A stretch of DNA of 60,452 nt, counting the filler. It is 3 parts of 3 records of this genome, joined end to end, with 100 filler letters (N's around TTAATTAATTAA, not from the genome) between each part and the next. Parts side by side here need not be neighbours in the genome. Positions count along the whole stretch, not along the records: positions 40,600 to 60,452 come from SRR20825006_1558; 2 more parts are not named here. One strand, 5' to 3'. Made by a program: the position numbers and the translations under genes. The stretch's first letter is position 1. Each line of letters opens with the position of its first letter. The notes below the pieces were generated by a model. The model was not told where the DNA came from. It did not search any database and was given only the letters and a program-made list of their open reading frames with translations. Below, one piece after another: positions 27,894 through 58,804 of this stretch.

Positions 27894-27993
27894 NNNNNNN
27901 NNNNNNNNNNNNNNNNNNNNNNNNNNNNNNNNNNNNNTTAATTAATTAANNNNNNNNNNNNNNNNNNNNNNNNNNNNNNNNNNNNNNNNNNNN
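27894..27993. other. artificial contig linker
   Basis: 44 N + TTAATTAATTAA (stops in all six frames) + 44 N. Confidence 0.99.
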
Positions 27994-27994
27994 C

Positions 27995-28423
27995 AACACA
28001 TCCCCGATGCTTGAAAAAATCGCGGATGGTCAGGTTGTGCTTGGCTACAATCTTCTAGGGTCTTATGCCGAAACCTTTAGCCAACGGAACCAAAACCTTG
28101 GCGTGATCCTGCCAGACGACTTTATCGTGGTTTATTCGCGAATTGCCATCATCCCGCGTGATGCGAGAAACCCGAATTTAGGCGCGCGTTTTCTTGACTT
28201 CATCCTGTCCGTCAAAGGCCAAACCGTTCTGCAAAATGATGGCAACTTCAACCCGGTGCGAACTGACGTTCCACCAAGTTCGTTTTCGTCGCTGATCTTT
28301 GACCGTTACGGCGAACGTGTACGTTCATTCCCGGTTGGGCCCGGCTTGCTGGTTTACCTTGATCAGGCCAAACGCCAGCGTTTCATTCGCCGGTGGCAGG
28401 ATGCCTTGCTCAACCGTCGCTAA
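27995..28423 (+). CDS. ABC-type solute-binding protein, C-terminal fragment
   Basis: LGYNLLGSYA and ARNPNLGARFLDFILSVKGQ; frame open back to the contig edge. Confidence 0.8.
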   Translation, partial: NTSPMLEKIADGQVVLGYNLLGSYAETFSQRNQNLGVILPDDFIVVYSRIAIIPRDARNPNLGARFLDFILSVKGQTVLQNDGNFNPVRTDVPPSSFSSLIFDRYGERVRSFPVGPGLLVYLDQAKRQRFIRRWQDALLNRR

Positions 28424-55310: not shown

Positions 55311-55425
55311 GGTTCATTTAAATTTTGCGTAAAGTTACCCCTTTTCAAGTATTAACTCCTTTTAAAATGTCTATTTTTGAGACGTCGGTTTGTATCTGCA
55401 AGTCGGCAGAAATCCTATACTGTTG

Positions 55426-56181
55426 ATGTTAAGACTGCTTCAGAAATTACTGATTTTACTTTGGCGCATATGGTTCTATGTGCTCATCATAGTGCCCATT
55501 ATCATATTGTTGCCCTTCCTACTTATTTCGGTAGCAAAAGACTCCTGGTATCCTTACTTTTTTAAAATGGCTAGGTTGTGGGCGCGCATTATTTTATACG
55601 GAATGGGCTTTTGGCCAGAGGTTAAACGTCTTGAAAAAACAGAACAGGGTAAAAGCTATATGTATATCGCTAATCACACCTCAATGACAGATATAATGTT
55701 GATGCTGAGTAGTGTGCGTAACCCTTTTGTATTTGTTGGAAAACAAGAACTTGCAAAATTTCCACTGTTTGGATATTTCTACAAACAAACGTGTATTCTG
55801 GTAGACCGCGGGGATCCTAAAAGCAGAAGAGCGGTATTTGAAAGTGCCCAAAACAGACTCAACCAGGGGCTTAGTATTTGTATTTTTCCTGAAGGTGGCG
55901 TGCCCGATGACACCAGCATTGTGCTTGATACGTTTAAAGACGGAGCATTCAGGCTAGCGATAGATCACCAAGTACCTATTGTACCGATGGTGTTTTATGA
56001 TAACAAAAAGCGTTTTTCTTATGAATTTTTCACCGGTACACCGGGATTGATGCGCGTAAAAGTCTTGCCATTTATTCAAACCAAAGGCCTAAAAGCGATA
56101 GATCGAAAAACTGTAAAAGAGCAGGCTTTTAAAGCCATTCATGCCGAATTGCTAAAAGATCAAGCCTACGCGGAAACCTAA
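55426..56181 (+). CDS. plsC: 1-acyl-sn-glycerol-3-phosphate acyltransferase
   Basis: NHTSMTD, IFPEGG and FKDGAF; ATG 55426 downstream of TATTTTTG at 55372-55379. Confidence 0.9.
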   Translation: MLRLLQKLLILLWRIWFYVLIIVPIIILLPFLLISVAKDSWYPYFFKMARLWARIILYGMGFWPEVKRLEKTEQGKSYMYIANHTSMTDIMLMLSSVRNPFVFVGKQELAKFPLFGYFYKQTCILVDRGDPKSRRAVFESAQNRLNQGLSICIFPEGGVPDDTSIVLDTFKDGAFRLAIDHQVPIVPMVFYDNKKRFSYEFFTGTPGLMRVKVLPFIQTKGLKAIDRKTVKEQAFKAIHAELLKDQAYAET

Positions 56182-56214
56182 AAAAGTCGCCCTAACCACA
56201 AGGCGACTTTTTTT
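56180..56214. terminator. bidirectional intrinsic terminator
   Basis: AAAAAAGTCGCC...GGCGACTTTTTTT. Confidence 0.85.
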
Positions 56215-56385
56215 CATCATTGCATATGCAATAATTAACCTAACCAACTAAAAAACTAACCTAACTTCCTGTGCACTGTTAGTTGGCAGTACACAGTTTC
56301 TTTTAAAGTTTGAAGATTAAACCAAAGTCCGGCCGGTTGAAATACAGCCAAACTTTGGTTATCTCATCTTCCCCTTTCATATATT
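56180..56385 (-). ncRNA. candidate structured 3'-region RNA of the ECF operon
   Basis: Two hairpins whose C-A mismatches on + become G-U pairs on -; an 8-nt loop complementary to a downstream segment; GUUAG repeats; terminator. Confidence 0.55.
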
Positions 56386-57825
56386 TTAAAACCGAATGCT
56401 TAAACCGGTGTAAAGACCTAAATAATAGGGTCTGAAATCGCTCACCGATTTGGTATAGGCATTCAGTTGGTATTTAAACATAGGTTCCAGATTGAATTGA
56501 ATGTGAGGCGTGAATTTATAATCTAAGCCCAAACCAACGTTGGTACTGAAACTAGTATTATTAAGACTGTTTGACGACCCGATGCGTGAAACCAAATTAT
56601 TATTTTCTTCAAGTGAAATAGAATTGTCGTTTAAGAATAGGGTGCTAAAACCACCAATCACTTGAATACCGAATTTACGATTGAGCAAAGCATATTCTGC
56701 TTCAAAAGGAACCTCAATGTAGCCTAATTCTTGACGCAGAGCATTGTTTATACTCGTACCCGCAACTGAAGCATTACTCGCAAATTCTGCTGCTGAAGAA
56801 GCCAGACTTTTATTAGCATCTGCCACCTGAATCAACTGTGAATTTTGATTATAATCTATACTGCTAATAGATTGCCCCTGAATGCTGGGAGCAAAGTTTA
56901 CTTGTTCCGTACGGTAACCTAAATCAACTTTATTTACTCCGGAGCGCACCGTAAGCCTGTCGTTAATGGCATAACTTACTTGAACCCCATAGCTAAAATT
57001 CACATCGCCACTTTTCTTGTTATCGGCAAATTCTGCTGCGATCCCAGAGCCACCAAAACTGTTGTAATACACGGGAGCCACCATAGGCGTAATACCCCAG
57101 CGTGATGCATCTTGAGATGCTGTATTTGAAGTTTCAGTATCCGCTAGAGCTTCTTCCTCATTTTGCGCGTTTGCGATTTCTTCCAATGAGGGTAATTCAT
57201 CTGCCGCAGTATTTTCTTGGGATTCGTTTTCAGTGGCGGCTATAGCGGCTGTGTTCTGTTCTGTGCTTGCAGTATGGTCATCCTGTGTAGCATTTGCATC
57301 ATTGCCTTGGTCAGCGGTAGCAATACCTGTTGAAGCAGCAGTGCTACCTGATTTTTTCGACTCTGAATTATTTCGGTTTTGAGTTGTGTTTGATGCGTTA
57401 CTTTTTACTTGATTTGCTTCCGTGGCTGAAGTAGAAGCAACAGTAGTTGCTTTAGTACTTGGATTAGATTCAGCCTTCTTTTGAGAATTAGAATCTTCAG
57501 TGCTTTTTTCTTCGGAAGAAACCACGGCATTGTCCGCAGTTTGCTCAATAGTTTTAGGTGTGCGCTGGTCTTGCTCAGGCGTTTCAGTTTCCTCTAAAAC
57601 CACTTCAACATCTTGCGCATCTGATGTTGAGAATATAAGGTTACCGGCGAGAAGGATTAGGACTAAGACAGCTGCTGCGCCGCTCAATTGAAGCCATAGC
57701 GGGATAATTGCGCGTTTTTTCTGCTGCTTGTCTACAATGCCAGCCCAGACTTTGTCATCAGGCATTGCCTCAAAGTCTTTAAACTTTTCCTGAAACAGGC
57801 GGTCTATGTTTTTTTGCTCTTTCAC
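56386..57825 (-). CDS. putative dual-membrane-spanning anti-sigma factor (N-terminal sigma-binding segment, TM, disordered linker, C-terminal OM beta-barrel)
   Basis: IDRLFQEKF...PDDKVW, then TM, ~160-aa S/T/N/Q/E-rich linker and beta-strands ending YTGLSIRF; GTGA overlap with the ECF sigma gene. Confidence 0.8.
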   Translation of the reverse strand: MKEQKNIDRLFQEKFKDFEAMPDDKVWAGIVDKQQKKRAIIPLWLQLSGAAAVLVLILLAGNLIFSTSDAQDVEVVLEETETPEQDQRTPKTIEQTADNAVVSSEEKSTEDSNSQKKAESNPSTKATTVASTSATEANQVKSNASNTTQNRNNSESKKSGSTAASTGIATADQGNDANATQDDHTASTEQNTAAIAATENESQENTAADELPSLEEIANAQNEEEALADTETSNTASQDASRWGITPMVAPVYYNSFGGSGIAAEFADNKKSGDVNFSYGVQVSYAINDRLTVRSGVNKVDLGYRTEQVNFAPSIQGQSISSIDYNQNSQLIQVADANKSLASSAAEFASNASVAGTSINNALRQELGYIEVPFEAEYALLNRKFGIQVIGGFSTLFLNDNSISLEENNNLVSRIGSSNSLNNTSFSTNVGLGLDYKFTPHIQFNLEPMFKYQLNAYTKSVSDFRPYYLGLYTGLSIRF

Positions 57826-58370
57826 CGTGTTGAGGATTGTAGGGTTTCACTCTGCTGATAATTTTCAACTTTTTCTTTTAAAATCATTCGGGCACGCGCC
57901 AGATTAGATTTACTGGTTCCTTCGCTAATGCTTAGCATTTGCGCGATTTCTTTGTGCGGGTAACCGTCTAGAACATAAAGGTTAAACACCAGCCTATAGC
58001 GGTCTGGTAATTCTTGTATTATTTTTAAAAGAAATTGAAGCGAGATCTCATTGGTGTCAACAAGAACCTCTTCCTGCTCAATCTGTTCTTCATTTACAAG
58101 TTCAAACAAACTCTGTTTACGATACCGTTGCAAAGCGGTATTGATCACAATACGCTTTAACCATCCTTCAAAAGAGCCTTTGCCTTTGTACTGATGTACT
58201 TTTTTAAAAATGGTTAAAAAAGCATCCTGAAGGTTATCTTCAGCCTCCTCGTAATTACGAGAATACTTAAGGGAAACCCCAAAGAGCGTGCGAGCGTACA
58301 AAGTGTACAATTCGGCCTGCGCTTTGGGTTTTTCCTTAGTTAAACCTTTTAAGAGCTTTTCTAAACTCAC
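57822..58370 (-). CDS. ECF RNA polymerase sigma factor
   Basis: AEDNLQDAF, SFEGWLKRIVIN and LPDRYRLVFNL...EIAQML...GTSKSNLARAR. Confidence 0.96.
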   Translation of the reverse strand: MSLEKLLKGLTKEKPKAQAELYTLYARTLFGVSLKYSRNYEEAEDNLQDAFLTIFKKVHQYKGKGSFEGWLKRIVINTALQRYRKQSLFELVNEEQIEQEEVLVDTNEISLQFLLKIIQELPDRYRLVFNLYVLDGYPHKEIAQMLSISEGTSKSNLARARMILKEKVENYQQSETLQSSTR

Positions 58371-58387: not shown

Positions 58388-58804
58388 TTACGGTTGCTCT
58401 ACAGGAACTTCTTGAGTTTCATAAATAGGCTCACCATTTTCATCATCGCCTTTATACATTTTAAAGACGTAGGTGTAGCGGTAAATTACATCGAAATTTA
58501 AAAAAGTGGAAATCGTGTCGTTTGGTGTGTCTGTACACATATCACTTTCTAAAACCTGACTTATGGCATACACAAAACGGGTGCTGTCTTCTCTAGCGGC
58601 TTCAAAATTGTAAAACTCGTGGCACGTTGTAGGTAATACAAACGAAACCGGCAATTGATAGCGCTCGCCGTAGACAAAACTTTCTGGTAACTCATAATCT
58701 GCAATTGGGAGCGCTTCATAGCTCACCACTTGCCCTTCATCATCCAGTGAACAACTGGTTATTAAACCTAATAAACCAATTAATAAAAAAACCTTTTTCA
58801 TCAT
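58388..58804 (-). CDS. lipoprotein, first gene of the ECF operon
   Basis: Lipobox ITSC followed by acidic SLDDE; two further Cys. Confidence 0.8.
   Translation of the reverse strand: MMKKVFLLIGLLGLITSCSLDDEGQVVSYEALPIADYELPESFVYGERYQLPVSFVLPTTCHEFYNFEAAREDSTRFVYAISQVLESDMCTDTPNDTISTFLNFDVIYRYTYVFKMYKGDDENGEPIYETQEVPVEQP

Follow-up and report, generated by a model that had tools for sequence, protein, structure and literature searches.

Does the 3′ end of an ECF sigma factor operon in marine Flavobacteriaceae carry an RNA of its own, and what might such an RNA do? The question arises from a stretch of DNA of 60,452 nt (the window), for which a preliminary description had proposed an uncatalogued structured RNA, encoded by the minus strand where the operon ends. 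A script reading of the window located stems (a) and (b), the complement of the loop of stem (b), the palindrome, the terminator and the 25-codon open reading frame exactly where they had been placed (Table 1). Comparison with other genomes showed that the last gene of the operon is followed on this strand by a conserved structured RNA element of approximately 88–90 nt. When positions 55800–56800 were searched against Rfam 15 with E values up to 10, only enterobacterial sRNA and snoRNA models were returned at 14–20 bits, well short of the thresholds set for these models. A search of 15 diverse homologous loci (E up to 0.1) gave nothing on the element beyond terminator-type matches below threshold in L145. 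No description of the motif was found in the literature covered, which leaves aside subscription journals, and short strings from the core and its complement gave only unrelated papers among the matches listed. We conclude that a Flavobacteriaceae-wide RNA, uncatalogued before, forms the 3′ untranslated end of an operon encoding a lipoprotein, an ECF sigma factor and a presumed anti-sigma/beta-barrel protein.

The putative lipoprotein encoded by the first gene has no match in Pfam and NCBIfam. Upstream of the sigma gene, the stretch coding for the C-terminus of this protein is conserved in different genera, and the conserved GAAGTNCC at this place, considered as a promoter motif, was rejected because it is this coding sequence. 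There is a 4-nt overlap between the stop of the sigma gene and the start of the third gene. In the 479-aa product of this third gene, a short N-terminal domain and one membrane helix are followed by a low-complexity linker of about 190 aa, and an outer-membrane beta-barrel makes up the C-terminal part. The separate anti-sigma and beta-barrel genes of the preliminary description are thus one open reading frame; judging from the position of the gene, the protein is presumably the anti-sigma factor. No clear Bacteroidota −7/−33 promoter motif was recognized by eye before the core of the element, and a sigma-70 scanner, whose scope does not extend to Bacteroidota promoters, reported none within the element.

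Table 1. Coordinates of the operon, its neighbour and the RNA features in the window
Feature	Position	Strand	Basis or remarks
Putative lipoprotein gene (138 aa), first gene of the operon	58388–58804	−	Signal peptide with Cys in the sequence
ECF-type sigma factor gene	57822–58370	−	Pfam Sigma70_r2, r4_2 and Sigma70_ECF; TIGR02937, 93 bits
479-aa gene before the element	56386–57825	−	Pfam OMP_b-brl_2 and OMP_b-brl at residues 235–447; TAA stop at 56388–56386
25-codon open reading frame, judged not to be a gene	56303–56380	−	ATG 5 nt past the stop of the preceding gene
Stem (a), 16 bp including 3 G-U pairs (56360–56345 with 56335–56320), and flanking 6-bp helix (56366–56371 with 56312–56317)	56312–56371	−	Three genomes
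Stem (b), 10 bp (56296–56287 with 56278–56269), loop CCAACTAA at 56286–56279 complementary to the core	56269–56296	−	
Family-wide RNA element	56179–56267	−	G/U-rich unpaired region followed by hairpin 1 and the intrinsic terminator; model R1 score 109.3 bits
Upstream repeat GTTAGGTTAG	56256–56265	−	Kept in closer Leeuwenhoekiella species only
Invariant unpaired 15-mer TTTTTAGTTGGTTAG, putative seed or binding site, includes TTAGTTGG	56240–56254	−	Conservation
Hairpin 1, 8 bp, includes palindrome ATTGCATATGCAAT at 56219–56232	56216–56235	−	Covariation
Intrinsic terminator hairpin and U tract, GGTTAG in loop	56180–56214	−	Predicted fold
Convergent acyltransferase gene, 3′ neighbour	55390–56181	+	Pfam Acyltransferase; TIGR00530

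The minus-strand fold of the 216-nt RNA has an energy of −74.5 kcal/mol, compared with −44.6 ± 4.0 kcal/mol for 200 shuffled sequences, none of which folded as well (z = −7.4); the plus strand gave −52.4 kcal/mol (z = −5.7). The strongest evidence that the features go beyond chance is their conservation and covariation in other genomes, on which the preliminary description had staked its claim beforehand. Using a plain MAFFT alignment of eight sequences, RNAalifold found 20 pairs, none of them broken and five with compensatory changes. In model-fitted alignments, which lean towards the structure and contain related genomes as non-independent samples, 99.5% of the cells were paired and 15 of the 20 pairs had changed on both sides with 22 rows, and 99.2% and 14 of 20, respectively, with 31 rows. 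None of 500 shuffles reached the observed values, and slid controls were paired in 39–67% of cells. Hairpin 1, whose loop varies from 4 to about 30 nt among the sequences, showed 99.6% paired cells and changes on both sides in four of its eight pairs (31 sequences). The terminator, a 15-bp hairpin followed by U6 and hence of the intrinsic (Rho-independent) type, was paired in 98.9% of cells in the same set, with 10 of 12 model pairs changed on both sides. Its absence from the output of a simple consensus scanner is probably due to the loop-size and tail rules of that program.

These data bear on the idea that the region has no function as RNA and represents either a bidirectional terminator with chance hairpins or a site acting at the DNA level, for example an operator bound by a protein or a recombination site resembling dif. 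The element does lie between convergent genes, and its terminator is flanked on either side by runs of A and T and adjoins the stop codon of the acyltransferase gene, so that it probably serves both strands; a single copy per genome is also what a dif-like site would show. Compensatory changes would, however, be unexpected in a DNA site, and so would the many G-U pairs in hairpin 1, which are A-C mismatches on the plus strand. Moreover, the core has no dyad symmetry, the element is found anywhere from about 3% to 97% along single-contig or near-complete records, and the terminator does not include the conserved unpaired 15-mer. We therefore consider this explanation very improbable.

The covariance model detected the element in 18 of 23 Leeuwenhoekiella genomes, once in each, and in 63 of 151 sampled Flavobacteriaceae; elsewhere in the order, only 3 of 150 genomes had it. 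Matches to the model were nearly always single, and BLASTN confirmed a single copy in five genomes. By BLAST, the 204 nt had no match in 40 of 41 genomes of another genus (that of G001; recA approximately 73% identical at the nucleotide level). Since the conserved part is single copy in these five genomes, and the 5′ module with stems (a) and (b) in G078 and G084, a dispersed repeat or MITE was ruled out; repeats inside the window were artefacts of the N linkers.

The location of the element is equally constant. It follows a homologue of the anti-sigma/beta-barrel gene on the same strand in all 18 Leeuwenhoekiella loci, the alignment spanning to the gene end in 14 of them, and in all 14 family loci, with the acyltransferase gene as convergent neighbour in 17 of 18 and 14 of 14, respectively. 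In six other Leeuwenhoekiella species, the nucleotide identity of the element was 81–87%, compared with 57–64% for the preceding coding sequence and 65–76% for its last 150 nt. Thus, as for RNAs of the CpxQ type, the element occupies the 3′UTR on the strand of its parent gene, shares the terminator of this gene and is more conserved than the coding sequence. Between stop codon and core, the median distance was 8 nt in 38 of the best 40 family matches, and in another genus it was 10 nt (28 of 28 loci). Such a gap leaves no room for an intergenic promoter, which fits an origin from the 3′UTR.

The same short distance is compatible with an element acting in cis, which would act on the stability of the operon mRNA, on its termination or on its translation-coupled decay and might pair with the mRNA itself near the sigma start, giving feedback without a free sRNA. 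At 8–10 nt past the stop codon, the core is within reach of the terminating ribosome in most genera, and the linkage to the one anti-sigma/beta-barrel gene is strict. In some genera (e.g. L040, L043, L049, L152 and L179), the first codons of the sigma gene or the sequence immediately ahead of them contain sites complementary to the core, and another genus has an invariant TTGACCAACAT immediately 5′ of the sigma start codon. Across 34 related loci, the mean duplex energy of the core with the sigma start region was slightly better than that of the controls (−9.8 versus −8.6 kcal/mol; 4 of 34 loci at p < 0.05), with a Wilcoxon p of approximately 0.001 that is overstated through the kinship of the genomes. 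The sigma start region of the window itself, however, offers no good site for the core (−7.6 kcal/mol, p 0.7). In Leeuwenhoekiella, the stop-to-core distance ranges from 29 to 139 nt, yet the core is unchanged, and the 15-mer does not vary between genera, although pairing purely in cis would leave room for co-variation. Finally, three genomes (L096, L141 and L145) have copies of seed and terminator, lacking hairpin 1, at unrelated loci; these fit a unit working in trans, at scores of only 37–39 bits to which the generic terminator contributes much. Altogether, a role purely in cis appears possible but unlikely.

If the element pairs with other mRNAs, the sequence searches point to no particular target. 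The complement of a 13-mer with up to three mismatches occurred 12 times in the 60-kb window compared with 16.5 expected, and a duplex scan of the window found nothing above background except the element's own antisense. In five Leeuwenhoekiella genomes, the complement of an 11-mer of the seed with at most one mismatch was not enriched and was rarer than the reversed control; the five exact 11-mer sites in G079 and G080 had no common gene context.

The most conserved part of the element is the 15-mer. Across 31 sequences from many genera (alignment consensus), conservation is 90% or more at each of its positions, and it is unpaired in the consensus structure. The preliminary description had drawn attention to GUUAG repeats in this region. 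Their UUAGUUGGUUAG core is invariant throughout the family; the upstream repeat and the GGUUAG of the terminator loop, on the other hand, are mainly restricted to the genus. In other genera, the position of the upstream repeat is taken by the stop-codon context AAGTTTTAG. The loop sequence GGUUAG occurs in most Leeuwenhoekiella and a few other genera and is mostly replaced by GTGCCAAG or another sequence elsewhere. This distribution is relevant for the suggestion that the RNA acts as a protein-binding or sponge RNA, in which GGUUAG or UUGGUUAG repeats (in Leeuwenhoekiella an unpaired one and another in the loop of the terminator) would bind, for instance, an RRM-type protein and so titrate this protein or recruit it to the mRNA. 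The motif is indeed concentrated here, with three GGTTAG sites in the 204 nt compared with 0.013 expected from the window-wide rate; on both strands of the 60 kb there are eight sites, fewer than the average of 19 in shuffled sequence. An invariant unpaired sequence is also the expected appearance of a protein site, which explains the 15-mer as well as a seed does, and the Bacteroides RRM protein RbpB binds single-stranded parts of sRNAs, according to PMC11697453. However, outside the genus the upstream repeat is lost and the loop has mostly changed, so that just one family-wide copy of the motif is left, too few to make a good sponge. We rate this possibility as decidedly unlikely.

Stems (a) and (b), which the preliminary description had listed first, are real but lineage-specific. 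They form an insertion that the window shares with G078 (L. palythoae) and G084 alone, and the family-wide unit consists of the core, the palindrome hairpin and the terminator. Compared with G084, three pairs of stem (a) are changed on both sides and three on one side in a wobble-compatible manner, its terminal pair is broken in G084 and its flanking 6-bp helix is invariant; stem (b) shows one double and three wobble-compatible changes. With four double and six wobble-compatible changes in total, both stems are maintained. The loop of stem (b) is the exact complement of the TTAGTTGG at 56251–56244 within the core. Seven of these eight pairs are invariant and one A-U pair is a G-U pair in G084, the sole divergent relative; this one informative substitution, from A to G in the loop, is compatible with the pairing. 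Full pairing of loop and core as an H-type pseudoknot is doubtful, because an 8-nt loop without an unpaired linker would be strained.

The open reading frame overlapping stem (a) begins shortly after the preceding stop, as had been described, and its frame is open for 25 codons, which would be compatible with a small protein. It is not conserved in relatives, though: read by eye, the corresponding frames have 13 codons in L038, 4 in L039 and, starting from TTG, 5 in L040, with unrelated sequence. In addition, the substitutions in G084 preserve RNA pairing and not the reading frame, and in most genera the core comes so soon after the stop codon (about 8 nt) that such a frame has no room. That this frame encodes a protein is extremely improbable.

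That transcription continues past the beta-barrel gene was an expectation of the preliminary description. In agreement with this, contigs of X1, X3 and X5, which are RNA libraries of three studies (metatranscriptomes), bridge the 3′ end of the gene, stems (a) and (b) and the element with no visible stop, as contigs that cannot give ends, strand or level and in which DNA carry-over is possible. The X4 and X5 contigs stop at the terminator, at 56213 and 56207, which is a weak hint only. The acyltransferase side had no contig cover in X3, X4 and X5, and this was counted as no finding; runs X6–X12 contained small shares only.

Among known systems, the closest parallel is CpxQ. According to PMC9438474, CpxQ spans the 3′UTR of cpxP, is better conserved than cpxP and obtains its 5′ end by cleavage near the stop codon. 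Both RNAs are short, lie in the 3′UTR of a gene for a negative regulator of envelope stress (a presumed one in the case of the element) and share the terminator of that gene; both are better conserved than the coding sequence, have their 5′ boundary, putative for the element, at the stop codon and contain an unpaired conserved stretch (PMC9438474). They differ in that there is no sequence relation, the phylum is another one and the parent is a three-gene ECF sigma operon here compared with the monocistronic cpxP; dependence on Hfq and RNase E cannot be assumed for the element. Another type of non-coding arm is represented by MicA, RybB and MicL of the enterobacterial envelope-stress ECF factor sigma-E, which have their own sigma-E promoters at other loci; MicL is produced from within or behind another gene. 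All three are mentioned as sigma-E-dependent sRNAs in PMC9438474. In contrast to them, the element is the tail of the sigma operon itself and no promoter is visible.

Within the same phylum, GibS and FopS are known from Bacteroides thetaiotaomicron; in PMC11697453, FopS is described as binding an RRM protein and its predicted targets as enriched in mRNAs for outer-membrane (SusC-like) proteins. FopS, however, has 14 paralogues, which are independent genes with their own promoters (PMC11697453), whereas the element is single copy in a 3′UTR, and its seed sequence differs from those of FopS and GibS. The element also gave no match in Rfam 15, where FopS has been deposited according to the authors of that paper, and we do not assign it to this family. 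A non-coding RNA linked to an ECF sigma gene is further known in the same bacterial group from the guide RNAs of dCas12f–sigmaE systems, which in Bacteroidota include an orthologue in L. palythoae (PMC13472631). In these guides, a scaffold is followed by a variable 3′ guide, whereas the element has its conserved part at the 5′ side and the terminator at the end; its operon contains no Cas12f-like gene and belongs to a different sigma locus.

Most likely, the element is a regulatory small RNA, and as the best reading we infer a 3′-derived sRNA that serves as a non-coding arm of the sigma regulon, as the preliminary description had suggested. That it is a base-pairing sRNA of the CpxQ kind within an envelope-related sigma response, an assignment by analogy, seems to us about evenly balanced between right and wrong. 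Under this proposal the element would be transcribed from the operon promoter, and it would for this reason be produced whenever the sigma factor is active. The RNA might then be freed by cleavage near the stop codon or last as a stable 3′ end, and would base-pair in trans with its targets, the invariant stretch being the putative seed. In the lineage of the window, two extra hairpins have been inserted between stop codon and seed, and the loop of the second, being complementary to the seed, may mask it in the unprocessed transcript. In its most far-reaching form, the proposal would describe a family-wide riboregulator within the ECF sigma operon mRNA, the 15-nt seed of which would control a conserved set of envelope mRNAs and which in the L. 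palythoae lineage would have become a self-inhibited precursor sRNA. The precursor would owe its self-inhibition to a 5′ pro-sequence gained in this lineage, with a hairpin loop that covers the seed up to the processing of the 3′UTR. We put this extended version forward tentatively and think it rather unlikely as a whole.

With the family-wide riboregulator, if true, a non-coding arm of an ECF response would be described for the first time in Bacteroidota, a phylum in which post-transcriptional control beyond the gut Bacteroides is almost unmapped. To our knowledge, Bacteroidota lack the classical chaperone Hfq. The candidate is well defined, being a single-copy element with strong covariation and an invariant unpaired stretch of 15 nt, linked to a single sigma/anti-sigma operon in a large proportion of the marine Flavobacteriaceae. 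It thus offers a handle on the regulated set of this ECF system, on the making of 3′UTR-derived sRNAs without Hfq and on the gain of modules by sRNAs, and its addition to catalogues of RNA families would improve the annotation of hundreds of genomes.

The RNA element lies on the minus strand at the 3′ end of an operon encoding an ECF-type sigma factor. The window organism belongs to Leeuwenhoekiella and is close to L. palythoae DSM 19859, with protein identities of 96% (479-aa protein) and 99.6% (acyltransferase). Genome G001, from a different genus, shares 44% of sampled words, yet its recA/trpS identity is only about 70–73%. The window consists of at least three contigs chained by N/TTAATTAATTAA six-frame-stop linkers, and these linkers account for the 103-nt 'repeat' found in the window repeat search.

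Coordinates of the operon genes, the RNA element and related features (L096, L141 and L145 are loci in other genomes)
Feature	Coordinates	Strand	Remark
Putative lipoprotein gene, 138 aa	58388-58804	-	First in operon, upstream of sigma gene
Core-like ATTGGTTTATTAGGTTTAA	58755-58790	-	Signal-peptide coding part of lipoprotein gene
ECF-type sigma factor gene	57822-58370	-	Stop overlapped by start of 479-aa ORF
479-aa ORF	56386-57825	-	N-terminal domain, helix, linker, C-terminal outer-membrane beta-barrel
Gap between two convergent genes	56182-56385		204 nt, holds element
Stem (a)	56360-56345 with 56335-56320	-	16 bp
Stem (b)	56296-56287 with 56278-56269	-	10 bp
Conserved 3′ part	56179-56267	-	
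Core	56240-56254	-	Unpaired 15-mer
Hairpin 1	56216-56235	-	8 bp
Terminator	56180-56214	-	
1-acylglycerol-3-phosphate acyltransferase-like gene	End at 56181	+	Convergent neighbour
Contig linkers	27894-27996; 40500-40602		
Extra short copy, L096	1498-1569	-	Terminator directly after core
Extra short copy, L141	2001-2068	+	Terminator directly after core
Extra short copy, L145	2001-2069	-	Terminator directly after core

All elements listed in the preliminary description were recovered from the window sequence at the coordinates given there. The minus-strand RNA fold (−74.5 kcal/mol, z = −7.4 versus shuffles) is stronger than the plus-strand fold (−52.4 kcal/mol, z = −5.7), and GGTTAG, though rare across the window, occurs three times within the 204 nt. 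The proposed 25-codon ORF was not conserved in relatives, and the genes taken separately for an anti-sigma factor and a beta-barrel protein are in fact a single 479-aa ORF.

The region downstream of this gene was aligned among other Leeuwenhoekiella species, which divided the gap into a conserved 3′ part and a 5′ part that carries stems (a) and (b) and is missing in the six aligned species. The 3′ part shows 81–87% nucleotide identity to these six species, compared with 57–64% nucleotide and 40–55% protein identity for the homologous coding sequence. It opens with a G/U-rich stretch that is unpaired; an 8-bp hairpin (the palindrome described previously) follows, and a short spacer rich in A separates this from the terminator. 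Within the unpaired stretch, every position of the core, TTTTTAGTTGGTTAG, is at least 90% conserved among 31 sequences.

RNAalifold, applied to a plain MAFFT alignment of eight sequences, returned two helices with no pair broken and 5 compensatory pairs. In model-fitted alignments of 22 and 31 rows, 99.5% and 99.2% of the cells were paired, with both-side changes at 15 of 20 and 14 of 20 pairs, respectively; sliding the 3′ partners as a control lowered pairing to 39–67%. None of 500 shuffles matched the observed values, a count that is not readable as a probability because the alignments favour the model and the genomes share ancestry; even so, the pattern is evident in the raw alignment rows. 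G-U pairs are frequent in hairpin 1 (among the 31 sequences, one pair occurs 19 times as U-G, 10 times as U-A and twice as C-G); as they would be mismatches on the opposite strand, the RNA strand is that of the operon. The suspected unannotated structured RNA is thus borne out by compensatory changes in both conserved helices. Rfam 15 contains no family matching the window or 15 diverse homologues, and the RNA belongs to no catalogued family.

A covariance model built from eight sequences (R1) gave one strong match (52–114 bits) in 18 of 23 genus genomes; two of the remaining genomes had weak matches only and three had none. In a family sample of 151 genomes, R1 matched 45. With a second model (R2), based on 31 sequences spanning many genera, this number rose to 63, nearly always with a single match per genome; among 150 further genomes sampled from the order, R2 matched just 3. 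BLASTN found a single copy in five genomes. Another genus (30 loci) carries a more divergent form, scoring only 15–30 bits, in which core and terminator are present but the hairpin differs.

At all 18 Leeuwenhoekiella loci and all 14 family loci, the element lies downstream of the homologous gene and shares its strand; for 14 of the 18, the protein alignment extends to the end of the gene. The convergent neighbour is the acyltransferase in 17/18 and 14/14, respectively. Each of the best 40 family matches had an identifiable gene end and 38 of them the core, whose median distance past the stop codon was 8 nt; 28/28 loci of the other genus gave a median of 10 nt. The spacer in Leeuwenhoekiella measures 29–139 nt, that of the window being nearly the longest. 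A core so near the stop codon leaves no room for an intergenic promoter in most genera, and no Bacteroidota-type promoter motif was seen by eye ahead of it. This fits an RNA that arises as the final portion of the operon's transcript.

Of 17 listed sequencing runs, 15 contain part of the stretch (10 recorded as RNA), and four were examined, all as Logan contigs. Contigs of X1 (55858-56584), X3 (56243-56479) and X5 (56207-56834) bridge the gene end and the element through stems (a) and (b), while one of X4 (56213-56361) lies inside the gap; the X4 and X5 contigs end inside the terminator hairpin. These contigs, which are silent on ends, strand and level and may include DNA carry-over, at most hint at co-transcription of gene and element. 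One X1 metatranscriptome contig lacks 17 nt at 56202, inside the terminator hairpin; the cause is either strain variation or collapse of the inverted repeat during assembly.

Stems (a) and (b), on which the preliminary description laid most emphasis, were found once per genome and only in the window, L. palythoae and one other genome (G084). Relative to G084 (79% identity), stem (a) shows three both-side changes, three wobble-compatible single changes and one lost terminal pair, and stem (b) one double and three wobble-compatible changes. Both are therefore maintained as RNA; they are a recent add-on and not part of the family-wide structure. The sole change in the loop of stem (b), A to G, keeps its pairing with the core as G-U, and this one substitution is compatible with a pseudoknot or 'anti-seed' pairing. 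Different insertions at the same site in other species (L081, L085) indicate that the spacer tolerates extra hairpins.

The combination of an invariant unpaired stretch, a covarying hairpin and a terminator, present in single copy in a 3′UTR that is conserved above the gene and bounded by the stop codon, points to a 3′UTR-derived regulatory RNA. With CpxQ and cpxP mRNA as described in a review (PMC9438474), a 3′UTR element better conserved than its gene and a boundary at the stop codon are shared, which by analogy points to a comparable mode of action. The architecture also resembles that outlined for the Bacteroides sRNAs GibS and FopS (PMC11697453). The dCas12f–sigmaE guide RNAs recently described in Bacteroidota, including an L. 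palythoae orthologue (PMC13472631), are unrelated to the element, and this operon contains no Cas12f-like gene. Conserved sRNAs are listed for the Flavobacterium psychrophilum transcriptome; the available portion of that text (PMC9723704) makes no mention of the motif.

Three genomes contain core and terminator without hairpin 1 at places that have no relation to the sigma operon; in one of these genomes, sp. A16, the operon copy (L041) is degenerate. These matches are modest (37–39 bits) and agree with a trans-acting unit. Target signals for the core were absent or weak in the window, five genomes and the sigma start region, so that the element may instead have a cis or a protein-binding role. 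In another Flavobacteriaceae genus (loci L002–L031), the sigma gene's TTG start is immediately preceded (about 10 nt) by TTGACCAACAT in nearly all 30 species; this sequence includes ACCAAC, the complement of GTTGGT in the core. In L. marinoflava (L197; G079:C22, about 19731), an intergenic gap contains a 14-nt exact core complement, seen on the opposite strand as a core-like copy approximately 120 nt behind a 224-aa gene; it may be a target or another copy.

The 138-aa putative lipoprotein has no family match in Pfam or NCBIfam, and in many genera its C-terminal coding sequence (..EVPV..) is kept immediately ahead of the sigma gene. The core-like sequence in its signal-peptide coding part has the same sense as the core, not the complement, and is probably a coincidence of codon usage. 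In the 479-aa protein, roughly 40 conserved N-terminal residues are followed by a single hydrophobic membrane helix, a linker of low complexity (about 190 aa, rich in S/T/E/N/A) and the beta-barrel, a layout unusual for a neighbour of an ECF sigma factor; the protein is conserved across Flavobacteriaceae, where the linker varies (479–569 aa).

The preliminary description is thus confirmed as an observation and supported in part as an interpretation: the RNA at the end of the ECF sigma operon is a new, widely distributed RNA family. If the protein encoded directly ahead of it is an anti-sigma factor, as presumed only from gene position, it would reach from the cytoplasm to the outer membrane.
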